Assembly: GCA_002787175.1 (NCBI GenBank)
Contig: PCWC01000066.1
Location: forward strand, 1 to 29,799
Length of the DNA: 29,799 bases
Source of the DNA: Parcubacteria group bacterium CG11_big_fil_rev_8_21_14_0_20_39_22
Lineage (GTDB): Bacteria > Patescibacteriota > Minisyncoccia > Phycocordibacterales > GCA-002787175
Direction of reading: 5' to 3'
Shown here one piece after another: positions 1,288 through 14,267 of this stretch. The position numbers and the translations under genes are program-made. Position 1 is the first letter of the stretch, and each line of letters opens with the position of its first letter. The notes under the pieces are model-generated. The model made no database searches, was not told where the DNA came from, and worked only from the letters and a program-made list of their open reading frames with translations.

Positions 1288-4200
1288 TTATGATAGTGGC
1301 ATACGTTTTTCGTGATGCACTTTATTATAATTACCCAATATGTCTACCATATATTTATCTAATTTGTCAAGCGATTTAATGCCGGTATTCTTTTGCTCAG
1401 TACGATTATGTGTCTCTACCACTAGAGATGCCACTGAAACCCTCGCCTTAACATAATATCCTTTTGTAATATTTTGACCTTTTGTCATACTCAACAAATC
1501 ACCTGGATATACACTAAACTTAAATGAGTAATTATCGTTTAGGACATCCCAATCCTTCTCGCTTTTTCCTCGAGTACACACTTTTGTCGGAAGTTCTTTT
1601 TTCGTTTTGTGATATGCGTAAACAGGAATAAAATAGAACTCGTCTTTACCTTTCTTATTAGCTTTGGTGAAAATATCTACGCGTACCATTGATTGTCGCT
1701 TCACAATTCCCTCTCCATCATTAATTAATAGACCCGATTTTTGTCCACCCGTAAGCTTAACGGAACGCACCAGTGGTCCTTTTTCTCCATTTTTCATGGT
1801 CTTATAGAGCGGTTCTGCAAACGCCCTCTTCGCGTCTCCATTAAATTCACGCAGACGAGAAAGAAGCGTCTGCATGAGTTTTGGATCAAGAAACAACCCT
1901 TCTTCAACAAGACGTTTTTCTGTAAGATTGGTGAGCGGCACTTTAACCGATGAATACTCTTGTTCAAATCGCTTTGCACTGCGCACCTTGTCATCATGGA
2001 CCTTACCACTCACCTTACGGCGTGGCATATGCGACACAAAGATTGGTTTTATGTTTAGTTCATCATCAGTTTCTTCTCTATTCTTAAACCACAGAATTTC
2101 ATCTTTATGTGCTTCTAATTCATACATCGGATCATCTTCCATGCGTGCCGCTAATTCATAACGGAAACCTTCCCAAGGGTCATTGAGCTTTGTGCGGTAT
2201 TCTTCTTCCTTTATTTCTTTCTCTAATTTATGTGCTTCTTCAGCATTTATCTCGGGCAATTCATCGAGTTTTTTATGCAATTGTAAGTACCTTATTATCT
2301 CCCCCTTCTTAGAATCCTTCGCAATATCCTTAACAGTTTTACTATTCATTACCGCTACCAGTGCCGCGTCCTGTGCGTGATGCTTTAGATTTTCCTCCCG
2401 ATTTTTATAAAGTGTCCAACGCTTGCGTGCATAAGCTGTCGCCATACCGTTTACAGTATTAACCGGCTTCTTATGATCAGGATCAGAAAATTCTAATCCT
2501 TTCTCAATGTAATTCTTTACAAATTTTGAAATATATCGAGTGTCATTGAGGGCACGTGCAACCAAGTCATCTCCCACATACTTCTTCACAAGTAGATTCG
2601 CTCGCTTTCGTGGAGCAATATTGACAAACGATTTTACCAACGCTTCAAACTGAGCCCATTTATTTTCATTGCCACCGAACCACTCGTAAGGAATACGATT
2701 CCCCTTTTCTTGGTTTTCTTGCTTTAGTACCAACACTTTATTATTAAAAGAGTCATCTAAACTACGGCTAAATGGAATAACGTGATCAATCTCTACATAC
2801 CCATCCTCATTGAGGCGATTTTCGTAAATTGCTTTACCAGAATACGCACACTTACAATTTTGTTCGCTCCAGAGACGGAATTTTAAAATATCCTGTCCTT
2901 TGGGTTCAGGGATTCCGAGCTCGACCATGCGTTCTTTTGCTTTTTCATTTACAAGCCTATTATCTCCTTGCAGTTTTTCAATATTCTTGCGTTCCCTGAA
3001 ATTTTTCGAAAGATCGCGAGCCAACTCAATATTTATTTGATGAGGTGAACCATACCTATCGATAATAGCGTTGACCACCTTGATAGTCTGCGATATGGTT
3101 CGTTTAACAACCGGATTGGTAATGCGATAGTCATCTTGCTTAAGTGACAATAATTTGTGTCGTTTGATGTTTGCGAATTCTTTATAATCCGCTTTAGATA
3201 TGGCGGTATCATAATCTTCACCGGCTTCCAAATATGGGATTATATTATAGAGAGCTTTTAGAGAAAGACTACCGAAAGAGTCATAGGTTAGATCAGAAGA
3301 AGTTATTGCTTCTATTACAGTTTCAGGGATTTTCTCAACAGCGTACTTACCGTTGATTAAATTGTCCTTAACTTCTTTGTTTGTTTTATACAAAGAAAGT
3401 ACCGTTCCAATCCTATCGTAAATCGTTTTGTCATCATCTGCTTTCTGTACAAAGTTAGGGTCAGTTTCTTCTAACAAGTCACGTAACTTCATCCAATTCA
3501 TCATCGAAGGTAATTTCGTCTTTGTCTCCGCTTCCTTTATCAACTTCTCCTTATTAATCTCTTCTCCTGGTTTTACTTTGATAAAGTAATTAACCATATT
3601 AAAACGATCACTTGCTCCTAAGTTCAATTTTTTACGAAGTCCGTCATAGTGTGGAGTTTTGACAGAAAAAATGTATTTCTTAGCAATTTTTCTTTCTTCT
3701 TCACTTAACGGTCGCCCTCTATCATATTGACCTTTCTTTATAACGACGTGATTTATCTTCTGCAATACTGAACTATATTGGAAAGCATATGTCGCTTTGG
3801 CGGCACGCAACTCTTTTGTTTTTCCTTCAAAAGTACACAGACCAACCATCTTCTCAAATCCGCCTTGAGCATAATGTTTTTGTCTATTAAAAGCCCCCGT
3901 TGCATTATCTTCGGTGTCATGGTCAACAATTGTTTTTACAAGTTCATCAGTTACAAATTTATTACCCAGTTTTTGTTGGACTGAAAATATCTGCCCGAGT
4001 TCATCTTCGAGCATTCCCCGAGTAACAGAATTCTTGTATGACCCAGCCTTATTACGCACACCTTCAAAAGAAATGTTGTCCTCATTTTCAACAATCTTTT
4101 TGTGAAAAAGTTCACCAACAGTTCGTACACCTTCTTTAACAAGAGAGATCTTCATATTCTGAATGCCAAACAGTACAGCTCCACGCTCTTTATCTACCTT

Positions 4201-4602
4201 TGCGTCACTTTTTTCTTTCCGGTTACTCTTATATCCTCGTCGCTTCACTATGTGGTATATGGCAATAAAGAGTTCTTGCGGAGAAATAAGCTCATCGAGT
4301 GCGCAGGTTCGTATTCCATAAGGATTGTTCGGTTGTGAGTGAGCTTTCCTAATTTCATCTTTTGACAAACCCGCCCTCATAAAAGCTTCTTTTACTGCAT
4401 CCAGTCGACCGTGGCGCCGCGCTAAACGTCGGCGCTGACTTCGCGCTAAACGTCTAGGTTCTGCCAAAGACTTTCCACTATCAGGTGTTTCGGGCTTATC
4501 AAAATAACGCACCCCTAAATCAATGATGCGTCTTTTATCTTCATCAATTATTGCCCACCCTACGGATGTAATACCTAAGTCAAGCCCTATAGTGTACCTC
4601 AT
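1288..4602 (-). CDS. cas9: Type II-C Cas9 nuclease (1104 aa)
   Basis: RuvC-I YTIGLDLGITSVGWA, Arg-rich bridge helix RRLARSQRRRLARRHGRL, RuvC-II INIELAR, HNH EIDHVIPFSRSLDDSFNNKVLV..ENQEKGN, RuvC-III HHAQDAALVA; no csn2 or cas4 in the operon. Confidence 0.97.
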   Translation of the reverse strand: MRYTIGLDLGITSVGWAIIDEDKRRIIDLGVRYFDKPETPDSGKSLAEPRRLARSQRRRLARRHGRLDAVKEAFMRAGLSKDEIRKAHSQPNNPYGIRTCALDELISPQELFIAIYHIVKRRGYKSNRKEKSDAKVDKERGAVLFGIQNMKISLVKEGVRTVGELFHKKIVENEDNISFEGVRNKAGSYKNSVTRGMLEDELGQIFSVQQKLGNKFVTDELVKTIVDHDTEDNATGAFNRQKHYAQGGFEKMVGLCTFEGKTKELRAAKATYAFQYSSVLQKINHVVIKKGQYDRGRPLSEEERKIAKKYIFSVKTPHYDGLRKKLNLGASDRFNMVNYFIKVKPGEEINKEKLIKEAETKTKLPSMMNWMKLRDLLEETDPNFVQKADDDKTIYDRIGTVLSLYKTNKEVKDNLINGKYAVEKIPETVIEAITSSDLTYDSFGSLSLKALYNIIPYLEAGEDYDTAISKADYKEFANIKRHKLLSLKQDDYRITNPVVKRTISQTIKVVNAIIDRYGSPHQINIELARDLSKNFRERKNIEKLQGDNRLVNEKAKERMVELGIPEPKGQDILKFRLWSEQNCKCAYSGKAIYENRLNEDGYVEIDHVIPFSRSLDDSFNNKVLVLKQENQEKGNRIPYEWFGGNENKWAQFEALVKSFVNIAPRKRANLLVKKYVGDDLVARALNDTRYISKFVKNYIEKGLEFSDPDHKKPVNTVNGMATAYARKRWTLYKNREENLKHHAQDAALVAVMNSKTVKDIAKDSKKGEIIRYLQLHKKLDELPEINAEEAHKLEKEIKEEEYRTKLNDPWEGFRYELAARMEDDPMYELEAHKDEILWFKNREETDDELNIKPIFVSHMPRRKVSGKVHDDKVRSAKRFEQEYSSVKVPLTNLTEKRLVEEGLFLDPKLMQTLLSRLREFNGDAKRAFAEPLYKTMKNGEKGPLVRSVKLTGGQKSGLLINDGEGIVKRQSMVRVDIFTKANKKGKDEFYFIPVYAYHKTKKELPTKVCTRGKSEKDWDVLNDNYSFKFSVYPGDLLSMTKGQNITKGYYVKARVSVASLVVETHNRTEQKNTGIKSLDKLDKYMVDILGNYNKVHHEKRMPLS

Positions 4603-4629
4603 AACCCTTAAAATATCACAAAATCAGAT

Positions 4630-4745
4630 AGAGATAAACCGCGAACGAGTCGCGGTTTAGAGCTCTGCGGTAAACCTTACATCCCGCAGGATGTAAAGCA
4701 CCTTATTACAGCAGCCTAACAGATCAGGTCTTGGTATAAACTAAT
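4630..4745 (-). ncRNA. Putative tracrRNA
   Basis: Minus strand reads anti-repeat-like AGTTTATACCAAGACCTGATCTGTTAGGCTGCTGT, then AATAAGG (nexus-like), hairpin TTACATCC-tgcg-GGATGTAA, CCGCAGAGCTCT (resembles CCGCAACGCTCT of the Neisseria II-C tracr) and a final hairpin TAAACCGCGA-ctcgt-TCGCGGTTTA. The ends are estimated and the repeat is not in the window to confirm pairing. Confidence 0.75.
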
Positions 4746-4837
4746 CTTTATTGTGGCTACAGATATATACTACCATCTTGCAGTTTTATCAGCAACTTTT
4801 TTCAGTTTCCAAGCTATAGAAATTAGGCAATTCTGTT

Positions 4838-6004
4838 CTAATCCCACTTGGGTTCTTTCCAGAATTTGTGCTTTTTGTTTTGTTCCTTAAGTAGATTCTC
4901 CACCTTGTCCCAATCTTGCTTTTCGTTGCCTTCGTCGACCATAGTGTCAATTTCTTCTCCGCTTATACCGGCGTATAGTCCGGCAACCAAATATCTTACA
5001 CCTTGATTGTCACTCGGATTCATTTTCAGTATCTGTTTGTATAACTTTATCGCTTCTTTTTCTTTGCCTTCTTCGGCATGCAAACCGGCGCGATATTTTA
5101 TAGCTCTTAAAAACGGTCTGTTTCTCAACACTCCCCACGGCATCTCTGTTGGCCACTTGGGAAATTTTTGTTTTGTTTTCTCGTAGGCGATTTTTACATT
5201 CTCCACCTCTTTATCTTTGTCTCCCGATTCATAATACAAATGAACAAGACCCACGTAAGTTATCACATTGTTCGGATCAAGTTTGATCGAATTTTGCAGT
5301 AACTTTTCCGCTCTTTTGCGGTCAGACCGATTGCCGCCCGCGAGCTCCATAGCATTATAATAATTATCCATGATTTCCTCATCGGGACCTTTAAGCGCCA
5401 GCATTTCTTCCTCACCAAAAGCAACTGTACTTTTATTCATTTCCTCAAAAACTTCCTTTACTTCCTCTTCCGTTGGATTGCTCCCAAACAATTTACAAGC
5501 CGGACAATTACCACATCCTTTAAACTCGACTTCCACTTCTACAGGCAACGTGTCAAACCAATCACAAGCTTTTTCCCACAATACATCGTCCCGGAAAGTT
5601 TCCCATGCGATTTCAATACCTGTTTCAGACGAGTAAATAATTTCTTCAATGAGATACGACTTATCCTTCCATTTGCCGTTTAAAATTTTACTCACCACCT
5701 CAATAACCTCTTTGTCTTCATCTTCAGGGTCTACGGACATCATTTCCAGAAAGTCCCGGGCGATTTTTAATTTTTCTTTTTGAGGCAGTGGAGGAATGGC
5801 GACGTAACGACCGCTTTTAATCATCTCTTCCGCTTTTCCTTTTTTTGGACTTTTATTTGTTTTGCCAGGTGAGTTTTCAATACAGCCCACATCTCCTTTT
5901 TCAAGATCCAGTAAATAGACACAGTCTTCTTCCACACCGTCAAAAGCCTCTATCACCCCGTCTATATCTATTTTATTACCCGAAGGCAGTATGTATTGTT
6001 CCAT
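4838..6004 (-). CDS. Acidic protein with a UPF0158-like N-terminus and TPR-like C-terminal region
   Basis: N-terminal IDIDGVIEAFD...YLLDLEKGDV...YVAIPP pattern; central CGNCPAC; C-terminal helical repeats with WG..RNRPFLRA and ILKMNPSDNQGVRYL. Family calls are from motif memory, not an HMM run. Confidence 0.6.
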   Translation of the reverse strand: MEQYILPSGNKIDIDGVIEAFDGVEEDCVYLLDLEKGDVGCIENSPGKTNKSPKKGKAEEMIKSGRYVAIPPLPQKEKLKIARDFLEMMSVDPEDEDKEVIEVVSKILNGKWKDKSYLIEEIIYSSETGIEIAWETFRDDVLWEKACDWFDTLPVEVEVEFKGCGNCPACKLFGSNPTEEEVKEVFEEMNKSTVAFGEEEMLALKGPDEEIMDNYYNAMELAGGNRSDRKRAEKLLQNSIKLDPNNVITYVGLVHLYYESGDKDKEVENVKIAYEKTKQKFPKWPTEMPWGVLRNRPFLRAIKYRAGLHAEEGKEKEAIKLYKQILKMNPSDNQGVRYLVAGLYAGISGEEIDTMVDEGNEKQDWDKVENLLKEQNKKHKFWKEPKWD

Positions 6005-6090
6005 AGCAAGAGAATAGCACGAGTTATTTTATTCTCAAAAGCAAGAAGTACAGTGGTCCACTGCCACTTTCACTTCTACGTAATGCTAAC

Positions 6091-6120
6091 AAAAAGCTCG
6101 TCCACGGGAGTGGGCGAGCT
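6091..6120 (-). terminator. Putative intrinsic terminator of the pyrE unit
   Basis: Minus strand AGCTCGCCCAC-tccc-GTGGACGAGCT (one mismatch) followed by TTTTT. Confidence 0.6.
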
Positions 6121-6146
6121 GATGTCGTTGATTAAGATCTTTTTGG

Positions 6147-6218
6147 CTATGTCGTAGCCGAAGCAATTTCATCGGCGGCAACAATCAAACGGTCCGCCGG
6201 TGTTAGTGTCTTTTTCAT
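6147..6218 (-). pseudogene. pyrF: N-terminal remnant of orotidine-5'-phosphate decarboxylase
   Basis: Hand translation MKKTLTPADRLIVAADEIASATT*. RLIVAAD resembles the PyrF first beta-strand motif RLIVALD; it starts 29 nt after the pyrE stop and ends after 23 codons. Confidence 0.55.
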
Positions 6219-6247
6219 TCCGTTCTCTTTTCGTATTATTGAGGGTT

Positions 6248-6916
6248 TCAATACCTTGCATTCAGACGATCCCAGTTGTCTTTCGGTCGAATTGCCTCAG
6301 ACCCTTGTTTACAGAGAGGACATTCTTCAGGTGTCCATATTGGCATAGGGCGATCGATGAGAGAAATAATCTCTCTCCCACTTATCTCCGTAAGACCGGA
6401 ACGATTTACAAGAGTAAGTATAAACGGCATTGATGCCCCACCTACAGAATCAACTGCCTCAATAGTGAGGTCGACACTTCCCCCCGTCGTTATCACATCC
6501 TCGCAAAGAAGCACGTAACTACCCCTCACAAGAGATTTTCCATAGTTATGAAAGACCAAAGATTTTTTTCCGTCGTTTAAAATCTTTGCAGGCGAAGCAA
6601 AAAAGCAGTCGTCTCTGGTAAAAGACATTATCTGATTACTCACAAATTCGGCAAGTTTTGTTGCCCCAGTTTGCGGCCCGACGACTCCTTGTGCCTCATC
6701 GATATCTCCTCCTTGTATGTCGAACAATTCGATAAGATCGGAAGCAGCGTCGTATAACAATACTTCGTCCGAAATCACTAACCGGCTGTTGAAAAAGCCG
6801 TTTGAGTGTTTTCCTGATGTAAGAAGTGCATGTGGTCGCTTTGGGTTTCCATCATGGATCCAAAGTGCGTTATTTTGTTGATATTCAATGATCCATTCAT
6901 CTGAAGTCCTGAACAT
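6248..6916 (-). CDS. pyrE: Orotate phosphoribosyltransferase-like (type I PRTase)
   Basis: HALLTSGKHSNGFFN and PRPP-binding loop VLLCEDVITTGGSV; C-terminal CPLCKQG seen in short PyrE proteins; AAGGAGG Shine-Dalgarno at 6921-6927. Confidence 0.8.
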   Translation of the reverse strand: MFRTSDEWIIEYQQNNALWIHDGNPKRPHALLTSGKHSNGFFNSRLVISDEVLLYDAASDLIELFDIQGGDIDEAQGVVGPQTGATKLAEFVSNQIMSFTRDDCFFASPAKILNDGKKSLVFHNYGKSLVRGSYVLLCEDVITTGGSVDLTIEAVDSVGGASMPFILTLVNRSGLTEISGREIISLIDRPMPIWTPEECPLCKQGSEAIRPKDNWDRLNARY

Positions 6917-7034
6917 AGGTCCTCCTTATTTAGATTTTACGCTTCAAGGCAGCGTCTTTGCCTGTGTCGACCGGTTCGACTCTGCCGTAGACCTTAAACA
7001 AAAACCGACTGAAAGTAAAGAAGATGCGTCATAC

Positions 7035-8573
7035 TTAATTTTTAAAAGCGGATTTTTGCAATTCCTCTACTTGTAGATCATCTTTAAATTTTTTACCCCA
7101 CCACAAGAGAAAGATTGCATAAAAAATGTAAACAGAGACCATTGTCCAGAAAGGAAAGAACTTTATCGTAACGGAAGCAAAAGGCAGACGGGCAAACCAA
7201 TCGGTGATTAATAGCATATACGATAGTAATAAATACGCTCCGTAACCTGGCAGTGCTGCAAATAGGTACGACACAAAACCGAGTACTCCGGTAAGAAATG
7301 CCAGAAGCATAGTAAAAGGTACAAAAGGAAGTACGAGTAGATTTACGATAGGAGAAACTATAGACAATGTTCCCATCATCCACAAAATCATCGGCAAGAC
7401 AAAGATTTGGGTTGCCAAAGTGGCGGAGACTATTTCACGAAGACCGGCTTTTTCCGGAATAAAGTGTAGATATTTGGATACTACCGGCACTCCGAGTATA
7501 AGCCCCAAAGTCGCCATAAATGAAAGCTGGAACGAAGGATCGAAAACCAATATCTTCGGATTCCAAACAATCATAAAAAACCCCGCCACGACAAGAGCAT
7601 GAGTCATTGTATAAACTCGTCCGGTGGCACGAGCAAGCAGAGCGAGTATAGCCATAAACGAAGCCCTGACTATGGTCGCCGAACCGCCGGTCATAATCGC
7701 AAAAGCGATTATGACTCCGACACCTATTCCAATCGACAGCATACGCCTGAAAAAAGAACCGAACAACTTCATTACAAAATCGGCAATTACCGTTATGTTG
7801 TAACCCGACAAAACCACTATATGTATAAGCCCCACGGTCCTAAAATCATCAAGAATATTTTCTCCAAGAGAACGTTTGGCCCCAACCACAAGACCCGCAG
7901 CAAGAGATGAAGCCGGTTCAGGAATTATGTAGCTCATTTTACTTACAAACGCCTGCTTGAAGGCAAAGAGAGCTCCTACTATCGCCAGATTTTCATCCTC
8001 AGAAATTACGACAATCTCCGGATAAAACATTTGGTAATGTATGCCATCTTTTGAAAGATAAGAGATATAGTCAAATTCCCGACCGGATTCGGTTTCAAAA
8101 TTTTCCGGCTTGTGAAGTTCTCCTTTTATCTCCACTTCAAAACCGTATTCGTATTGCGGATAAAGTGATGATATGACAAGCATACCGGAATCCATAGCAA
8201 ACTCTTCATCGGCAAATAATAGTTTCTCGGCTTTGACTTTGAGGTGTGTGTTTTTATCTCGGACATCCGGCTCGTCTACTACCCTGCCTTGGATTGTAAC
8301 TTCCATGCCGACTAAGCTATCTACAGCACTTCTTTCGTTATTGTTTGAAACATCAAACCTTATTACTCCAACCGCAAGCGAAAAAAATATAAGAGCTATG
8401 GATAAAAAGACTTTCCGAGCAGATGGCTTGGCAATCGATATTCCATAAAGTAAAAGAGCGACTGAAAGCAAAATCAAAAACAAACCTTCAATGTATCCGA
8501 CGGAATAAAGTGAGCTATAAGCAACGCCGACTGCGAAAGAACCTATAAAAATATATGATAACTTTTGCCACAT
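7035..8573 (-). CDS. comEC: ComEC/Rec2 competence membrane protein (OB-fold region + Competence domain, no beta-lactamase domain)
   Basis: Multiple TM segments, FDY..YL..GI motif, GLIHIVVLSGYNI, ATIVRAS.MA and FQLSFMATLG. Confidence 0.93.
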   Translation of the reverse strand: MWQKLSYIFIGSFAVGVAYSSLYSVGYIEGLFLILLSVALLLYGISIAKPSARKVFLSIALIFFSLAVGVIRFDVSNNNERSAVDSLVGMEVTIQGRVVDEPDVRDKNTHLKVKAEKLLFADEEFAMDSGMLVISSLYPQYEYGFEVEIKGELHKPENFETESGREFDYISYLSKDGIHYQMFYPEIVVISEDENLAIVGALFAFKQAFVSKMSYIIPEPASSLAAGLVVGAKRSLGENILDDFRTVGLIHIVVLSGYNITVIADFVMKLFGSFFRRMLSIGIGVGVIIAFAIMTGGSATIVRASFMAILALLARATGRVYTMTHALVVAGFFMIVWNPKILVFDPSFQLSFMATLGLILGVPVVSKYLHFIPEKAGLREIVSATLATQIFVLPMILWMMGTLSIVSPIVNLLVLPFVPFTMLLAFLTGVLGFVSYLFAALPGYGAYLLLSYMLLITDWFARLPFASVTIKFFPFWTMVSVYIFYAIFLLWWGKKFKDDLQVEELQKSAFKN

Positions 8574-8587
8574 AAATAATCGTCTTA

Positions 8588-8774
8588 GAAACTGATCTTA
8601 TGTCTCACCACAGTAATATGAGTCAAAACCCCCGTTTCGGGTCGTCATGACCAAAAATATGACTGCAAAACTTCGCTTCGTCCTCATTGAATCTCGATTC
8701 ACTTCGGACTCCAGCTCGTTTTTCGCCCATATTTTTGGACACTTCAGACCTCGATGAGACATAAGACCAGTTTC
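8588..8774. mobile_element. MITE-like element A (187 bp)
   Basis: Terminal inverted repeats GAAACTG(A/G)TCTTATGTCTCA (19/20 match), flanked by TTA at 8585-8587 and 8775-8777; internal IR CCAAAAATATG/CATATTTTTGG; non-coding. Confidence 0.7.
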
Positions 8775-8777
8775 TTA

Positions 8778-8862
8778 GAGCCAATCTCCAATCTCACCAC
8801 GAGAGGCAGAAGATACACTTCGTGTCTCGTTTCGCATATACGATGAGATTGGAGATTGGCTC
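8778..8862. mobile_element. MITE-like element B (85 bp), in tandem with A
   Basis: Perfect 19-bp TIR GAGCCAATCTCCAATCTCA, flanked by TTA at 8775-8777 (shared with A) and 8863-8865. Confidence 0.75.
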
Positions 8863-8889
8863 TTAAATGGAAACTGAGGAGCAAATCCC

Positions 8890-9654
8890 TCATTGAGCTC
8901 GACGAGCTCCCACCACTTTAATCTCAAGCTGTCGCTCAACTCGACCTTCTTTAATAATATTTTCGAAGTGTTTTTTAAGGTCGGTAATAGCGTCTTCTTT
9001 CTTTTCATCTGCGACCATATTCCACACGCTCATTGTTTGGATATACCAGATCGCTTCCTCAGGGCTGAAATATTCAATGACAAAAAACGATTGATCCTGG
9101 GCGGAACAGAAACCGTTTTCATTCACTACCTTCGCAGGGTCGTATTCTTTCTTGATGTCCGGAATTTCCTGATTTATGAATCGCTTGAGAATCTCTTTGT
9201 TTCTTTTCTTGAAATCACCCGCCTCGTTTTTATTGATGACAAAAAACCATCCATTTGGTTTCAGCACTCTCCTTATTTCATCCAAAGCGATTTTGTTCGC
9301 AAACCAGTGAAAGGAGCTGAACGCGGTTATTGCATCAAAGGTGCCATCCTCAAACGGCTGTTTCTCCACTGGAGCGACCTTATACTTTATTTTGTACTTG
9401 TTGTCTGCTTTCGCCTGTCGTATCATTTGGTCATCTATATCAGTTCCGACAACTTTTGCTCCATTTTCTGATAGTTGTTCCGTAGCAATTCCAGTTCCGC
9501 AACCGATGTCCAAAATATATGGTTCCTCTTTCGCAATTTTATGAAGGATGTAATTCATAGCTTCACTGGGGAATTCTTTCCGAGCTTTGTCGTAGTTTTT
9601 GCTTAAATTACCGAAATCACCATATCCTTTTTTTATTCTAAGATTTTTAGTCAT
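8890..9654 (-). CDS. Class I SAM-dependent methyltransferase
   Basis: Motif I ILDIGCGTG, post-I VVGTDID and FDAITAFSSFHWF; substrate not inferable. Confidence 0.9.
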   Translation of the reverse strand: MTKNLRIKKGYGDFGNLSKNYDKARKEFPSEAMNYILHKIAKEEPYILDIGCGTGIATEQLSENGAKVVGTDIDDQMIRQAKADNKYKIKYKVAPVEKQPFEDGTFDAITAFSSFHWFANKIALDEIRRVLKPNGWFFVINKNEAGDFKKRNKEILKRFINQEIPDIKKEYDPAKVVNENGFCSAQDQSFFVIEYFSPEEAIWYIQTMSVWNMVADEKKEDAITDLKKHFENIIKEGRVERQLEIKVVGARRAQ

Positions 9655-9748
9655 ACCGTCATTCTATCAAGAATATGGGGTTGTTGACAATCAAGAGATA
9701 CTGGTGTTGTATTACATCAGAAACGAAAATATAACTGAAAGATTCAAT

Positions 9749-10492
9749 ATGCCAAAACAAGTACCTTGGAAATCAAACATCACTGAAGTTGGTAAAAACA
9801 AACTTCTCACTCGAGGGGTAGACCAAGAAGAAATCATACGTCGCTTTAGCTACGAGGAAATGGTTTTCCTCTTACTCTTCGATCGAAGACCGAGTGAAGT
9901 TGAGGCAAACTTACTTCGCGCGGTTATTGTCTCGCATGTCAGTCATGGTGTCACTGGTCAGAGTACCATCGCAGTGCGTATGGGTGCGGATTGTCGCTCG
10001 CCATTTTTGAATTCGGCGGTAGGCGGTTTCCTCACAGGATCAGGAGAGTTCCATCAAGGCGCATTACAGAGATCGATGGAAATGCTTAAAGAAGCAGCCG
10101 AAGCCAGAAGTGTAGAGCAGTGGGTTCGAGAACGGTTGGATAATAAAAATACGTTCTATGGCTACGGCCACCGATTCCATTCAAAAGATCCGCGGGCAAT
10201 TGTCCTTATGAAATTATGCGACGAACATACTTACATTGGAAAGCATGTTCGTACCGCTCGAGATATTGAGTCAATCGTCGGTTCCGAGCGTGGCAGATAC
10301 ATGAACATCGAGGCCGCAGGCGGTTCAATTCTCCTTGACATTGGGTTTCCACCAGAAATTGCCTCTCTCATTATTCTTATCGGACGCGGACCTATGTACG
10401 CAGCGGTGTATATGGAACGTTTGCTTTCCGAGAGTAAGCCGTTCCAACGTCTTGCGGTACATGACATCGTTCCCGGAAAGGAGGAGAAATGA
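9749..10492 (+). CDS. Citryl-CoA lyase-like protein (citrate synthase fold), divergent active site
   Basis: WKSNIT..RG..S...FLLL..RP, SHG, GYGHRFH.KDPR and NIEAA align by eye with Ccl (WKTAIT, DHG, GYGHR, NVDGA). Start moved to ATG 9749 because the ORF-track extension overlaps the divergent methyltransferase. Confidence 0.8.
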   Translation: MPKQVPWKSNITEVGKNKLLTRGVDQEEIIRRFSYEEMVFLLLFDRRPSEVEANLLRAVIVSHVSHGVTGQSTIAVRMGADCRSPFLNSAVGGFLTGSGEFHQGALQRSMEMLKEAAEARSVEQWVRERLDNKNTFYGYGHRFHSKDPRAIVLMKLCDEHTYIGKHVRTARDIESIVGSERGRYMNIEAAGGSILLDIGFPPEIASLIILIGRGPMYAAVYMERLLSESKPFQRLAVHDIVPGKEEK

Positions 10493-11196
10493 ATACATCA
10501 CAAGAAGTATGGGCAATCATTCCCACGCGTGGCGGTTCTACAGGCCTATCTGAGAAAAACATTCGTATGCTTGCCGGGAAGCCATTGTTGCATTACATGC
10601 TTGAAAAAGCAGTACAGGCAAGATCACTTAGCCGTATTGTTCTTACTACTGACAATGACGAAATTGAACTGGCAGCAAGACAGATCAGTGGAATTGACGT
10701 TTGGCGGCACGATCCTTCACTTTCGGTAGCAGGCCAACCATCGTTCGGTGTATTCCGATCAACGTATGAGAAGCTGGTACAGGAAGGTGGTATTGAGCCG
10801 AGAGCTGTGGTCCTTTTACGAGTGACTACTCCGCTATGCCTCGCATCAGACATTGATAATGCTGTCGGTTTACTGCTTGGAAATAATGTCAACGCTGAAT
10901 CGGTATTGTCTGTTGTGAAATCTAACGTGCATCCGAAACGGACGTATATGATGGACACCCAGGGTTTCTTACGTGCCCGCGAAGAAACTCCTGAATCTGA
11001 CTACCCTCTACCGAGGCAAGTGTTTGATGAAGTGTACATAAGAAACGGTGCCATATACGCGTCACTTCCCACTATTGTTCGCGAAGGTCGGCTCTGGGGA
11101 CCCAAAGTTATTGCGTATGTTATGCCGAAAGAGAGATCGATCAACATCAACGATGATGTCGATTTCATTCTCGCCGAAGCATTGATCCGACGCTGA
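10489..11196 (+). CDS. Acylneuraminate cytidylyltransferase (NeuA/PseF)-like protein
   Basis: AIIPTRGGS.G..EKNIR.LAGKPL, RQ, YIRNGAIY and SININDDVDF; ATGA overlap with the upstream gene. Confidence 0.85.
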   Translation: MNTSQEVWAIIPTRGGSTGLSEKNIRMLAGKPLLHYMLEKAVQARSLSRIVLTTDNDEIELAARQISGIDVWRHDPSLSVAGQPSFGVFRSTYEKLVQEGGIEPRAVVLLRVTTPLCLASDIDNAVGLLLGNNVNAESVLSVVKSNVHPKRTYMMDTQGFLRAREETPESDYPLPRQVFDEVYIRNGAIYASLPTIVREGRLWGPKVIAYVMPKERSININDDVDFILAEALIRR

Positions 11197-11207
11197 AATA
11201 CAAATAG

Positions 11208-11246
11208 ACCCGCTCTACGTTCTAATCGTAGGCGGGTTTTTATTTT
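11208..11246 (+). terminator. Intrinsic terminator of the ccl-like/neuA-like unit
   Basis: ACCCGC-T-CTACG...CGTAG-GCGGGT hairpin followed by TTTTATTTT. Confidence 0.75.
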
Positions 11247-11315
11247 GAAATCAAAAGTGAGATAGAGGATGGGTAGCCCGAAATTTACTTTTTCCACACA
11301 TTGCAACGATTCTAA

Positions 11316-11538
11316 GAGCCAATCTCCAACCTCATCGTATAAGAGCATATCCACCATCTAATGCATAGGCGAAATGTCCAAAATTCGCCCGCGAAAATTG
11401 GATAGTTTGAGTAGCCATTCGCCGCGGTAAATGGTGACGAAAAATAGACGGTTTTGCAGCCAAATTTTAACAAAATTACGTGACGAAGAGACTCGGAGTG
11501 TATATTCTATCTCTCGTGGTGAGACCGCAAACAGTCTC
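11316..11538. mobile_element. MITE-like element C (223 bp), same family as A/B, reverse orientation
   Basis: One end GAGCCAATCTCCAACCTCATCGTAT is nearly identical to B's right end; the other end (reverse complement) GAGACTGTTTGCGGTCTCACCACGAGAG shares about 40 bp with B's left end. Flanks are TAA and TTA, and the TTA is the rnhA stop. Confidence 0.7.
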
Positions 11539-12276
11539 TTATACATCCGACCATTGATTCTTTAGTAAATCAGCTTCTTGTTTTGAAAAAACTTTTTGAT
11601 ACTTCGCACCCCTCTTTCCCAGAACCTCCGCCTTGCACATATTCCAGTCTTTGTAGAATTTGAAATCGCCAGCAACCATAGAGACATAGCCGTAAGGTTT
11701 TTTGCTACTACTTTTTTTCTTTTTTGACACCTCCTTTACTGAATCGGACTTTAGAAATTTGCCACTTACAATATCGGGTATCGAATAATTTTCTATATCT
11801 CCCTCATATAATTTATCTTCTTTTAAATCGGCAAACGAAGTCGCAATTTTGTCTGCTCTTTCGTTTCCTTTTACTCCTATATGACCACCAACATAGTCGT
11901 ATGTTACTTCTAAATTATCTGAAACCCTCCGGAGTTCTTCCCACAGATCGCGATTTAAAACATCTTGCTTATTTTTTGTCTTCCAAGAATTTCTCTCCCA
12001 AGAATAAATCCAAGAAGTTATTCCATTTATAAGATAAGATGAATCGGTATAAATTATTACTTTCAAGTTGGATACTGGTGAAGATTTGAGATATGACAAT
12101 GCCGATATGGCAGCTTGGAGTTCCATACGATTGTTAGTAGTACTCTTATCGTACCCTCCAAGCTCTACAACTTCTCTACCTCCAAAAACTATTACAGCAG
12201 CCCATCCACCAGGACCGGGATTCTCCCGAGAAGACCCGTCGGTAAATATAATGACATCTTTTGTTGTGGTATTCAT
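11539..12276 (-). CDS. rnhA: Ribonuclease HI with a C-terminal caulimovirus-VI-like hybrid-binding domain
   Basis: FTDGSSRENPGPGGW, TTNNRMEL, YTDSSY and GHIGVKGNERAD; C-terminal Y...GDFKFYKDW..CKAEV.G..GAKYQK. ATG 12276 preferred over TTG 12285. Confidence 0.92.
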   Translation of the reverse strand: MNTTTKDVIIFTDGSSRENPGPGGWAAVIVFGGREVVELGGYDKSTTNNRMELQAAISALSYLKSSPVSNLKVIIYTDSSYLINGITSWIYSWERNSWKTKNKQDVLNRDLWEELRRVSDNLEVTYDYVGGHIGVKGNERADKIATSFADLKEDKLYEGDIENYSIPDIVSGKFLKSDSVKEVSKKKKSSSKKPYGYVSMVAGDFKFYKDWNMCKAEVLGKRGAKYQKVFSKQEADLLKNQWSDV

Positions 12277-12387
12277 GATAAGCAAGACTTAGGACACATA
12301 ACTTACAACTAACAACATACAACTTATAAAACAATAATTTTTAATTACCAATTTTTAATTTTATTAGGTGAATTAGGAATTAGATGA

Positions 12388-12510
12388 ATTAGGTGAATTT
12401 TCTCTTCCTCTCTTTTCGTGTTACATGTTATACGCTACACGTTCTATGCTTTATGTTACACACTCCACGCTTTCCCTAAAAGCTAACAGCTACCAACTAA
12501 CACCTATTCT
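12388..12510. repeat. Heptamer-rich intergenic repeat, copy 1
   Basis: ATTAGGTGAATTTT...CTCTCTTTTCGTGTTACATGTTATACGCTACACGTTCTATG...TTCCCTAAAAGCTAA...CTAACACCTA; an inverted copy lies at 15469-15583. Confidence 0.85.
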
Positions 12511-14267
12511 ACTATATCCACAATCCTAAGTCGTAGCTCCGGAAAGTTTCGGAACATACTTTTTTCAAGATGAGCGGTTATACTTACCCTTTTCATTGCC
12601 GATAGTTCTTTTGAGTTTTTATTCTTAGGATTTCGGGTGTAGAAAAATTGTATTGCGTCGATTGGTTTACCACCTTCTCGTTTACAAACAAATTTCAGAT
12701 GATTCTTTTCTTTTCCGAAGTACTCTACCCTCAATAACTCGATATTTGAAAGTTCAAAAAGTGGCTTTGGATTTCCGACTCCGAAAGGACCCAATTTCTC
12801 TATCGTAGAGTATAGTTTCCAATCAGCTTCCTCCGGAGAAATGACCCCATGAATTAAGGCGGACGCATTCTCTTTTTTTTCTTCGTCTTTGTAAATCAAG
12901 TCGTGGGATTTGGAAAGTAAATCATTTAAAAAATGAACTTTTTCACTTGAAATTGAAAACCCTCCTGATTGCATATGACCTCCGTACTGAAGAAATGTAC
13001 CCTCAGGCGTACTACTTATGATTTTTAGTATATCAAAACCCTCTGGAGCTCGACAAGAACCTTTGAGCACCCCTTCTCCATCCCTACCCCATAAGAAAAC
13101 CGGCTTTTGACATTCTTCTGCAATGGATCCAGCGGCAAGCCCCAAGAGCGACGGCTTCCATTTTGGATTACCAAGCACGATGACAGGACTGTCCTTGATC
13201 TCTTCTCTCTCGGATATATGCCGTTTAATTTCTTTTACCATAGAGGCGACAACACCTTTGCGTTCGTTGTTAATTTCGTCGAGATGATTGGTATAATGCT
13301 CGGCCTCATCTTCGCTTTCAGTCGACAAAAGTAAAAAAGCATCTCGAGATACCCCCATTCTGGAGGCAGCATTTATCCGTGGAGATATTGTGAAACCGAT
13401 ATCATCTTCCGATAAATATCTTTGATTTACCTTTGTCTTTCTTAAGAGTTTCATTAGACCGACTCGGGGAGATTTACGCAAAACAAAAAGACCGTACTTT
13501 GCAAGCACTCTGTTTTCCCCAACAAGTGGAACCATATCGGAAAGTGTCGCAAGTCCAACCATATCAAGTAACCACTTCTCCCAACCTGGCTTTGGTATAT
13601 GTAGTTTAACGTTTAAATCATCCTCATCTTCTCTAAGCTTGAAAAGGACCCTTTCCATAAGTTTAAAAACGACCGCTGCACCGCAAAGCATTTTTTCAGG
13701 ATAAAGACATCCCGGTTGTTTGGGATTTACCACAATAGAATCATCAGGTAACGAACCACTAAGCTCGTGATGGTCTGTGACTATAACATCAATACCAAGC
13801 CCTCTGGCGTGGGATATCGCATCGAAAGAAGCGATACCGCAATCAATAGTTAAAAGTAAATTTGTACCATTTTTAGCAAGCTCATCGATGCCAGAGATAT
13901 TTAGACCGAAACCTTCATTATGCCTATGAGGTATGTATATTTCATAATTTGAAAACCCGACCTTTCTAAAGACATCGTTTACCAGTACTGCTCCCGGAAT
14001 ACCGTCGCTATCATAATCACTCCATATCGCGATATGTTCGTCGTCTTTTATAGCTTTAATCAAACGGTCCGCCGCCAAATCAGAATTTTTGAGCAATGCC
14101 GAATCGTGAGTATGAAGATCATAATCGGGATTTAGAAATACTTCTGCTTGGTCTTTTGATGTTATTTTATGACTATCTAAGACTTTTTTTATAAGAGGGT
14201 GGTAACTTTCGAGTTCCAGTGAGCTATTATCATCTATTTTTGTAGAGGTTTTCGAAATTGAAGACAT
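12504..14267 (-). CDS. recJ: Single-stranded DNA 5'-3' exonuclease RecJ
   Basis: DHH-family motifs DYDSDG, TIDCG, TDHH, ATLSDMVPL, PRINAASRM and DHHA1 YGGH. Confidence 0.95.
   Translation of the reverse strand: MSSISKTSTKIDDNSSLELESYHPLIKKVLDSHKITSKDQAEVFLNPDYDLHTHDSALLKNSDLAADRLIKAIKDDEHIAIWSDYDSDGIPGAVLVNDVFRKVGFSNYEIYIPHRHNEGFGLNISGIDELAKNGTNLLLTIDCGIASFDAISHARGLGIDVIVTDHHELSGSLPDDSIVVNPKQPGCLYPEKMLCGAAVVFKLMERVLFKLREDEDDLNVKLHIPKPGWEKWLLDMVGLATLSDMVPLVGENRVLAKYGLFVLRKSPRVGLMKLLRKTKVNQRYLSEDDIGFTISPRINAASRMGVSRDAFLLLSTESEDEAEHYTNHLDEINNERKGVVASMVKEIKRHISEREEIKDSPVIVLGNPKWKPSLLGLAAGSIAEECQKPVFLWGRDGEGVLKGSCRAPEGFDILKIISSTPEGTFLQYGGHMQSGGFSISSEKVHFLNDLLSKSHDLIYKDEEKKENASALIHGVISPEEADWKLYSTIEKLGPFGVGNPKPLFELSNIELLRVEYFGKEKNHLKFVCKREGGKPIDAIQFFYTRNPKNKNSKELSAMKRVSITAHLEKSMFRNFPELRLRIVDIVE

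Follow-up and report, generated by a model that had tools for sequence, protein, structure and literature searches.

A window of 29,799 nucleotides (the whole stretch of DNA analysed here) from the Parcubacteria group bacterium CG11_big_fil_rev_8_21_14_0_20_39_22, positions 1 to 29,799 of contig PCWC01000066.1 (assembly GCA_002787175.1), carries a cassette of three genes. They code for a citryl-CoA-lyase-like protein, for a nucleotidyltransferase-like protein of the NeuA type, the enzyme type that makes CMP-sialic acid, and for a class I S-adenosylmethionine (SAM) methyltransferase. The first two proteins are an obligate, co-evolving pair that is sometimes fused and in which both active sites have been remodelled, and the three genes together constitute a single self-contained, horizontally mobile cassette equipped with its own promoter and terminator. 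The reading that we favour, to which we give somewhat less than an even chance, is that these genes encode a pathway not described so far, directed at a small anionic hydroxy acid of the citrate or malate type and including a nucleotidylation step. No description of this gene combination was found in the literature.

Automatic annotation names the three proteins citrate synthase/citryl-CoA lyase, acylneuraminate cytidylyltransferase and methyltransferase, and metabolic reconstructions of the Candidate Phyla Radiation (CPR) and of other uncultured microbes would wrongly credit their hosts with citrate cleavage and sialic-acid activation. The cassette would instead be a compact transferable unit with a chemistry not yet described, which may yield a new nucleotide-linked acid metabolite or provide a new route for the activation of citrate-like acids. 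Since it measures only 2.3 kb and brings its own promoter, it can be moved as it stands to a laboratory host, which makes the question directly testable.

Organisation of the cassette

The window comes from an 884-kb CPR (Patescibacteria) genome, 93 % complete, that was recovered from groundwater. The same stretch is present in groundwater and aquifer DNA sequencing runs, with no RNA run among those listed. The cassette is made up of the following features:

8890..9654, minus strand: class I SAM methyltransferase of 254 aa (Pfam Methyltransf_11, E 2e-26), the third cassette gene, with an architecture like that of HvrF and trans-aconitate methyltransferases
9655..9748, no strand: divergent promoter spacer of 94 nt between the methyltransferase gene and the lyase-like gene, with elements conserved in CPR copies
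9749..10492, plus strand: citryl-CoA-lyase-like protein of 247 aa with a short citrate-synthase fold (Pfam Citrate_synt PF00285, E 3e-36)
10489..11196, plus strand: NeuA-type (CTP_transf_3) nucleotidyltransferase-like protein of 235 aa (Pfam PF02348, E 4e-16), translationally coupled to the lyase-like gene
11210..11246, plus strand: intrinsic-terminator-like hairpin followed by a T run, closing the two-gene operon

An earlier interpretation made from the letters and translated open reading frames (ORFs) of this DNA (the sequence-only reading) had already described these gene coordinates, an ATGA overlap between the two core genes, a terminator of their own and the divergent SAM methyltransferase. 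All of these are borne out, and the motifs SHG, HQG, GYGHR, NIE and RGGST are present as it had read them. The overlap lies at 10489-10492 with a GGAGGAG just 5' of it. The lyase-like gene starts at the ATG at 9749 and not at the TTG at 9599 of the mechanically derived ORF. The terminator stem (11210-11237) was found by direct reading, and a terminator scan recovered part of the same stem. Within the spacer, a TTGACA, a -10 element of the TGTTGTAT(A/T) type and a GAAAGG Shine-Dalgarno sequence before the ATG are kept in the CPR copies (8 of 9 aligned), while the most distant aligned copy, at locus L005, is devoid of all three. A promoter scan also gave minus-strand promoter-like sites in the spacer that could serve the methyltransferase gene. 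No Rfam family matched between positions 8400 and 11700.

Conservation, co-divergence and fusion of the core pair

A family profile built from an alignment of the lyase-like protein retrieved 13 loci in species-representative genomes and 45 in metagenomes. In 49 of the 52 loci with enough downstream sequence the NeuA-like gene lies directly 3' of the lyase-like gene, and in one of the three exceptions its place is occupied by a transposase gene. The intergenic gaps range from -10 to +74 nt everywhere except at locus L009, where the distance is 211 nt. The two proteins have also diverged together: their pairwise distances are correlated with a Mantel r of 0.83, a value that none of 999 permutations reached, and the distances of the methyltransferase track those of both other proteins (r 0.92-0.93).

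Moreover, two independent fusions join both enzyme types. In P0127 the C-terminal half of the lyase-like protein is joined in frame to a NeuA-like protein of the cassette clade. P0268, a protein of 735 aa, combines an N-terminal NeuA-like domain (44 % identity, with the same active-site signature as described below) with a full-length citrate-synthase-like domain. Because the adjacency extends across phyla and is accompanied by co-divergence and by fusions, the pairing is not a matter of chance, and the coupled pair from which the sequence-only reading had argued for a common pathway is thus conserved well beyond the window.

In an all-versus-all clustering of the ORFs from about 57 loci, no genes recurred other than those of the cassette and a HAD-family hydrolase gene, which is present in five loci (L006, L012, L047, L060/L061). 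The methyltransferase gene is found within the flanks in 19 of the 27 loci that could be judged on both sides (~70 %), mostly divergent and upstream, sometimes downstream. Neither a NeuB- or KdsA-type gene nor a Ligase_CoA domain, as expected of a citryl-CoA synthetase, occurs among the scanned neighbours of related loci, and for Ligase_CoA the same is true of the recurring genes.

The archaeal locus L012 (8001-11473) has an arrangement of its own. A single protein of 461 aa consists of two fused lyase-like halves, the first with a canonical N-L-D base and the second degenerate, having neither the histidines nor the GxGHR loop. It is followed by the NeuA-like gene, the HAD hydrolase gene and a convergent methyltransferase gene, and the whole unit adjoins gatA and gatB. 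No longer form of the lyase-like protein came up in a search made for such forms, which is weak evidence; the corresponding search with the NeuA-like protein yielded P0268.

The citryl-CoA-lyase-like protein

The lyase-like protein adopts the short citrate-synthase fold that corresponds to the C-terminal part of PF00285. Its nearest solved relative is the citryl-CoA lyase (Ccl) of Hydrogenobacter thermophilus, PDB 6hxp (full-length profile match, E 1e-39), to which its AlphaFold model (pLDDT 91) has a Foldseek TM of 0.85. It thus shares the same short fold over its entire length with Ccl and with the citryl-CoA-lyase module of ATP-citrate lyase (ACLY), and has in common with Ccl three active-site histidines and the arginines of the DPR and GR motifs. 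However, identity to Ccl is only about 29 %, DH has become SH and HGG has become HQG, and the family possesses invariant residues of its own (R57, Q71, S72, D81, E223 and R224). Its partner is a NeuA-type protein and not a citryl-CoA synthetase. All six NCBIfam citryl-CoA lyase models score below their cut-offs (at best 170.4 against 245 bits), and the neighbours in the ESM Atlas are generic "citrate synthase" clusters only.

In an alignment of 140 sequences, H66, H102, H141, R149 and R213 vary hardly or not at all; they match the residues with which citrate synthase binds citrate/oxaloacetate. Position 234 is basic (R or K) in the variant sequences inspected. The catalytic residues of reference are H274, H320 and D375 in pig citrate synthase and D1026 in ACLY. 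From this His-His-Asp set both histidines are kept (H102 and H141), but the Asp position, 188, is mostly replaced: it holds E in 123 sequences (88 %), G in 10, D in 4, A in 2 and K in 1. Residue 188 covaries with residue 63, His63 going with Glu188 and Tyr63 with Gly188. As Gly188 is always accompanied by Tyr63 (10 of 10 Gly forms), this pattern suggests that the two positions act together and that a single family contains two alternative active-site solutions. At six Gly188 loci the neighbouring NeuA-like protein is still intact. Judged by these residues, the lyase-like protein is constrained and probably an active enzyme, yet no orthodox Ccl.

On Agrobacterium and Azospirillum plasmids, loci with a CoA transferase and a Ccl-like gene offer a further comparison. 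Their Ccl-like proteins are 29-34 % identical to the lyase-like protein. At the one Agrobacterium vitis locus examined, a CoA transferase, which activates acids, is encoded directly upstream of the Ccl-like gene and beside tricarboxylate transporters. Here, in contrast to the cassette, the activator is a CoA transferase and not a nucleotidyltransferase, there is no methyltransferase gene, and the lyase belongs to another Ccl subfamily. The Ccl-like gene of this locus (L077, plasmid pAvCG78a, 63617-78339) is in an operon with the CoA transferase gene and a gene of the isocitrate-lyase/PEP-mutase family, and the operon adjoins tripartite tricarboxylate transporter genes and a GntR regulator. It looks like an uncharacterised tricarboxylate catabolic locus.

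The NeuA-like protein

The profile of the NeuA-like protein aligns over its full length to CMP-Neu5Ac synthetases (6ifd, E 2e-43; 1eyr, E 4e-37). It stays below the equivalog cut-offs of the related enzymes, with 72.2 bits against a cut-off of 205.7 for the PseF model and at most 37 bits against 155-281 for the KdsB models, and its ESM Atlas neighbours are generic "acylneuraminate cytidylyltransferase" clusters only. Neither core protein passes as the plain Ccl or CMP-sialic-acid synthetase, an outcome on which the sequence-only reading had made its idea of a new pathway depend.

With the CMP-Neu5Ac synthetases of N. meningitidis (1eyr), V. cholerae (6ifd) and mouse (1qwj), and with PseF and KdsB, the protein has in common the fold, the nucleotide P-loop and the Arg-Gln clamp of the dimerisation arm. 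The P-loop residues R14, S17, K23 and N24 are invariant and correspond to Arg12, Ser15, Lys21 and Asn22 of the N. meningitidis enzyme. R176, Q177 and Y190 are also kept. In terms of the N. meningitidis enzyme, the protein retains the equivalents of R165/Q166, which form the carboxylate clamp, and of T106, N175 and Y179, together with the hydrophobic pocket. The roles of these residues in NeuA, among them the binding of the sugar carboxylate by Arg and Gln, have been described (PMC2901514).

By comparison, invariant H74, R111, N219 and N221 take the place of R71, Q104, D209 and D211 of N. meningitidis. In NeuA, Arg71 hydrogen-bonds the cytosine base and thereby accounts for CTP selectivity (PMC6580227), while Asp209, Asp211 and Gln104 make up the catalytic magnesium site (PMC2901514, PMC6580227). 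The D209A mutant of the N. meningitidis enzyme is inactive, kcat of D211A is down 15,000-fold (PMC2901514), and Asp211 has been termed invariant (PMC6580227). Contrary to CMP-Neu5Ac synthetases, the NeuA-like protein has thus given up the Arg that selects cytosine along with the whole three-residue magnesium site, which leaves the earlier suggestion of a "CMP-activated" product insecure. The exchange of Asp, Asp and Gln for Asn, Asn and Arg is a coherent charge swap, by which, we infer, an Arg may stand in place of the magnesium ion or the site may be adapted to a more anionic substrate.

Among 12 sequences with identities down to 36 %, 44 columns are invariant, including the P-loop Arg, Ser, Lys and Asn as well as the substituted positions. 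A search of 1.84 billion representative proteins for relatives found the H/R/N-I-N signature in only about 13 clusters among the best 150 matches. The next clades have Arg and Gln with N-I-D or D-I-D and score 116-172 bits with the PseF model, as against 72-74 bits for the cassette clade. The sequence-only reading had drawn attention to RGGST instead of RGGSK; the last position of this motif varies inside the family and was rejected as a meaningful trait, and it is H74, R111, N219 and N221 that matter instead.

In three near relatives from outside the cassette (P0132, P0269 and P0135) the NeuA-like part is joined to a LarA-type (lactate-racemase N-terminal) domain or a D-2-hydroxyacid dehydrogenase. 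These fusions hint that part of the wider family may work on simple 2-hydroxy acids and not on sugars.

The genomic context of the NeuA-like gene also differs from that of CMP-nonulosonate synthetases: it is never beside NeuB and is nearly always beside the lyase-like gene. The absence of NeuB, epimerase and glycosyltransferase genes near the cassette in the window, noted previously, stands, and there is no CoA ligase gene nearby either. However, the rest of the host genome does contain two NeuB genes, located on one other contig and each with a cytidylyltransferase gene adjoining or close to it. The metal motif of these cytidylyltransferases is D-I-D in one and D-I-N in the other, and both have Gln at the Gln104 position. 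The two NeuB genes and two orthodox CTP_transf_3 genes (L016, L017, L019 and L020) are assembled in one 10-kb stretch of contig C109, at about 3500-14000, a gene content that suggests two separate nonulosonic-acid pathways in this host. Ligase_CoA (PF00549) had no match in the 93 % complete genome, in which phosphoenolpyruvate (PEP) mutase and pyruvate:ferredoxin oxidoreductase were likewise not found; acetate kinase is present.

The methyltransferase

By sequence the third protein, METHYLTRANSFERASE, is a generic Methyltransf_11 protein, whose LDIGCGTG motif together with the Pfam match identifies it as a class I SAM-binding enzyme. The methyltransferases of the cassette have invariant motifs of their own (GYGxFG, FHWF, NKN and S-x-W-N). 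More is learned from the structural model (pLDDT 88). The closest structure is PDB 9e72, HvrF in complex with S-adenosylhomocysteine (SAH) and pantaphos, with a Foldseek TM of 0.82; in VIA-align it reaches a Z of 24.3 with a root mean square deviation of 2.5 A over 240 of 247 residues, the runner-up having a Z of 21.1. The yeast trans-aconitate methyltransferase Tmt1 (3g5t) aligns over its whole length with a Z of 19.2 and is ninth among the listed entries. The likeness to HvrF and to trans-aconitate methyltransferases concerns the whole chain, including the N-terminal and lid elements, and the motifs F..Y..R..(F/Y)P, close to the N-terminus, and F(H/Q)W are common to the cassette protein and HvrF. 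The NCBIfam Tam equivalog NF002463 matches with E 7e-8, but at 32.5 against 297 bits this is below its cut-off.

HvrF has itself been described as trans-aconitate-methyltransferase-like, and a role in resistance to side products has been proposed both for it and for trans-aconitate methyltransferase (PMC7858074). HvrF from the pantaphos cluster of Pantoea ananatis, yeast Tmt1 and E. coli Tam all bind small, unsaturated and multiply anionic acids. A methylated acidic compound, as the sequence-only reading had imagined, is in keeping with a methyltransferase that is present in about 70 % of the loci and whose nearest structure holds a small phosphonate-bearing dicarboxylic acid. In contrast to the setting of HvrF, the host genome has no phosphonate pathway, as judged by the PEP mutase result. 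The idea of a phosphonate pathway was rejected on this ground and because the phosphonomethylmalate synthases FrbC and Pfs2 have another fold: they are homocitrate-synthase (HMGL-like) enzymes and do not belong to the citrate-synthase fold (PMC8942020).

Rarity and mobility

The lyase-like family is absent from all 60 relatives of the host that were searched, two same-genus genomes included; of 400 further genomes taken from across the phylum, a single one contains it. One of the same-genus genomes (G001) has no cassette, and its neighbouring ComEC and RNase H genes are separated by about 430 bp that include one copy of a repeat resembling a miniature inverted-repeat transposable element (MITE). 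The DNA flanks in this genus are too divergent for direct alignment, and the empty site is established at the protein level. It follows from this empty site that the three genes came or went in one insertion or deletion event. In the window, the cassette is flanked by:

7035-8573, minus strand: ComEC, the left neighbour of the cassette
8583..8865, no strand: two MITE-like elements in the left flank (inverted-repeat pairs I2 and I4)
11310..11539, no strand: MITE-like element in the right flank, with termini that match a left-flank element
11539-12285, minus strand: RNase H, the right neighbour of the cassette

Within the left flank, 8777-8796 pairs with 8844-8863 at 100 %. Across the cassette, 8837-8865 has its complement in 11313-11341 (97 %), and 8772-8796 recurs in direct orientation at 11310-11334 (92 %). 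MITE-like elements with matching termini thus bracket the cassette like a composite element. Copies of these repeats are found on several contigs of the two same-genus genomes, and the one at the empty ComEC/RNase H site of G001 is a copy of the right-flank element.

The hosts of related loci are labelled as CPR groups, Verrucomicrobiales, Gammaproteobacteria, Ktedonobacteria (Dictyobacter), Acidobacteria and an archaeon. Although metagenome bins can carry wrong taxon labels, the existence of high-GC and low-GC copies makes the spread real. The G+C content (GC) of the cassette ranges from 0.37 to 0.66 across loci, roughly tracking the host but often 4-12 points off the flanks, and in the window it is 0.47 as compared with 0.395 for the genome. 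Large serine recombinase genes lie a few kb or less from the cassette in six otherwise unrelated loci (L005, L033, L039, L047, L058 and L059), and an integrase, a transposase, a Fic protein and a DNA methylase are encoded near it at others. No relative was found on viral contigs, and plasmids yielded only relatives with at most 34 % identity from another Ccl subfamily.

A possible pathway

A small, multiply anionic acid is proposed as the substrate on three independent grounds, because the citrate/oxaloacetate ligands are kept in the lyase-like protein, because the NeuA-like protein combines a carboxylate clamp with an added Arg, and because the methyltransferase is of the HvrF/aconitate type. 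In a first step the citrate-synthase-fold enzyme, with its oxaloacetate/citrate ligands in place and with Glu or the Tyr/Gly pair substituting for the Asp base, would convert an acyl-CoA and a 2-oxo acid into a 2-substituted malate, or would catalyse the corresponding cleavage reversibly. In a second step the NeuA-like enzyme would grip the carboxylate of this acid by the retained Arg-Gln clamp and join the neighbouring tertiary hydroxyl, which would be the counterpart of O2 of sialic acid or of 3-deoxy-D-manno-octulosonic acid (Kdo), to a nucleoside monophosphate. It would do so without the usual catalytic magnesium site, having Arg111 and two Asn where Gln, Asp and Asp of NeuA hold the metal, and the nucleotide might not be CTP. 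Finally, the HvrF/trans-aconitate-type methyltransferase could methyl-esterify the acid, or an unsaturated side product, at one of its carboxylates. The HAD phosphatase present in some hosts may dephosphorylate a precursor, the part that KdsC plays in the Kdo pathway.

Close parallels are the Kdo and sialic-acid pathways (KdsA-KdsC-KdsB and NANS-NANP-CMAS), which likewise associate a C-C bond-forming enzyme with a NeuA/KdsB-fold nucleotidyltransferase that acts next to a carboxylate and, as in some cassette loci, with a HAD phosphatase. In the cassette, however, the condensing enzyme has the acyl-CoA-using citrate-synthase fold and is not a PEP-dependent enzyme of the NeuB/KdsA kind, there is no glycosyltransferase, and the nucleotidyltransferase has no magnesium site. 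It is because a logic of condensation, phosphatase action and nucleotidyl transfer fits the gene set, the occasional HAD gene included, that we propose, in this sequence, the formation of a malate-type acid with a substituent at C2, the transfer of a nucleotidyl group to its tertiary hydroxyl and a methyl-esterification; the exact order is put forward tentatively. Given that no transferase recurs, the product would be an end product or a transient intermediate.

Several observations weigh against such a pathway. Every one of its chemical steps is read from residues and neighbouring genes. Loss of the equivalents of Q104, D209 and D211 cripples NeuA, so that the NeuA-like protein could be inactive or could carry out another chemistry. 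The base position 188 of the lyase-like enzyme is loosely conserved, with G, A or K in 13 of the 140 sequences. With 18 % identity, the likeness of the methyltransferase to HvrF is confined to structure, and the methyltransferase gene is missing from 8 of the 27 loci evaluable on both flanks, while the HAD hydrolase is present in five loci only. A glycosyltransferase or other transferase that would use a nucleotide-activated acid recurs nowhere among the roughly 57 loci. This last result, and the behaviour of the cassette as mobile accessory DNA, also leave the function in surface modification envisaged by the sequence-only reading unsupported.

In a broader formulation, which we consider possible but doubtful, both enzymes would be one machine, carried by a cassette in transit between bacteria and archaea, and would either make a hitherto unknown nucleotide-linked and possibly methylated polycarboxylic acid or replace citryl-CoA synthetase by a new NTP-driven activation and splitting of citrate-like acids. 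If this is true, the NeuA-like enzyme would be a natural variant of NeuA/KdsB free of the metal site, with an Arg for the catalytic magnesium ion.

Alternative explanations

The second of these activities, taken as a catabolic pathway, is the main rival of the biosynthetic pathway proposed above, although we regard it as rather unlikely. The NeuA-like enzyme would be the activating partner and would form an acyl- or phospho-nucleotide from the carboxylate or a phosphate of the acid on the way to a CoA thioester; the lyase-like enzyme would then split the thioester into acetyl-CoA and a 2-oxo acid, and the methyltransferase would clear an aconitate-like side product. Elsewhere the activating partner of Ccl-type enzymes is CcsAB, and on the Agrobacterium vitis plasmid an activating enzyme, the CoA transferase, is encoded directly 5' of the Ccl-like gene. 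The cassette holds no other candidate activator, and Ligase_CoA and pyruvate:ferredoxin oxidoreductase were not found in the genome. Tight coupling and fusions would suit a labile intermediate, and outputs that are central metabolites would make the cassette self-sufficient. Furthermore, activation of the sugar hydroxyl has been attributed to the very magnesium site that is lost (PMC6580227), and a nucleophile that is a carboxylate or a phosphate could do without this site. However, the NeuA residues that hold the carboxylate beside the reacting hydroxyl are retained, the canonical Asp base, on which Ccl and ACLY depend, has been exchanged, and the P0268 fusion carries a full-length domain of the synthase type. 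The HAD phosphatases would have no clear role, and no transporter recurs. In addition, we know of no precedent for a NeuA fold that makes an acyl-nucleotide.

The mobility of the cassette would also be compatible with resistance or detoxification, in which the enzymes would act on an environmental antimetabolite resembling citrate or aconitate, such as a phosphonate of the pantaphos kind or a derivative of maleate or malate with a substituent, and inactivate it by methyl-esterification, nucleotidylation and/or cleavage. This would agree with the rare and patchy spread across phyla, with adjoining recombinases, integrase, transposase and MITEs, with the strong promoter of its own and with a module GC that departs at many loci from that of the host flanks. 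The structure nearest to the methyltransferase is moreover that of HvrF with a phosphonate toxin, and a role of HvrF in resistance to side products has been proposed (PMC7858074). Resistance is nevertheless mostly a matter of a single modifying enzyme and not of an obligate, co-evolving and even fused pair, and the methyltransferase, which is the most resistance-like part, is the dispensable one. CPR hosts are generally held to lack the tricarboxylic acid cycle enzymes that such toxins would target, aconitase itself not having been searched for. We consider this explanation unlikely.

Distinctly unlikely is a system for defence against phages or for conflict between microbes, which would use up a nucleotide or produce an effector derived from one. 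The Fic protein, the DNA methylase and the serine recombinases beside the cassette at other loci speak in its favour, as do its rarity and mobility, and in PADLOC-DB 2.0 the methyltransferase matches the mad2 model (E 1e-21). This match, however, covers the generic methyltransferase domain, and the lyase-like and NeuA-like proteins match no model of the same database. No sensor, nuclease, pore or toxin-type domain recurs, the viral contigs searched gave no relatives, the promoter of the cassette is near-consensus in this genome as well as in close CPR copies, and no regulatory RNA was recognised around it here.

The replacement of all three magnesium-site residues and of the base-selecting Arg raises the question whether the NeuA-like protein is a catalyst at all, since mutation of the Asp residues alone nearly abolishes NeuA activity (PMC2901514). 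It might have become a nucleotide- or ligand-binding subunit that regulates or scaffolds the lyase-like enzyme. A fused and translationally coupled arrangement fits a stable complex, and the degenerate second lyase-like half in the archaeal L012 indicates that pseudo-enzyme parts are tolerated. But the 44 invariant columns are typical of an active site under selection, and the replacements form a coherent set and not the random pattern of decay, which makes a non-catalytic role very improbable.

That a citryl-CoA lyase and a CMP-nonulosonate synthetase are here two ordinary neighbours, with the remainder of their pathways elsewhere, is suggested by the clear Pfam matches of both and by the two NeuB genes through which the genome makes nonulosonic acids, but is contradicted by the adjacency, co-divergence and fusions, by all curated equivalog and subfamily models remaining below cut-off, by the replaced catalytic residues, by the cytidylyltransferase that each NeuB already has at its side or close by and by the absence of any citryl-CoA synthetase domain among those found, and is thus extremely improbable.

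Other genes of the window

Further neighbours in the window are a phosphoribosyltransferase-domain protein and RecJ. The RNase H on the right of the cassette (11539-12285, minus strand), an RNase HI, has a weak match to PF01693, the N-terminal hybrid-binding domain of RNase H1, at its C-terminal residues 211-238, a position that is the inverse of the usual domain order.

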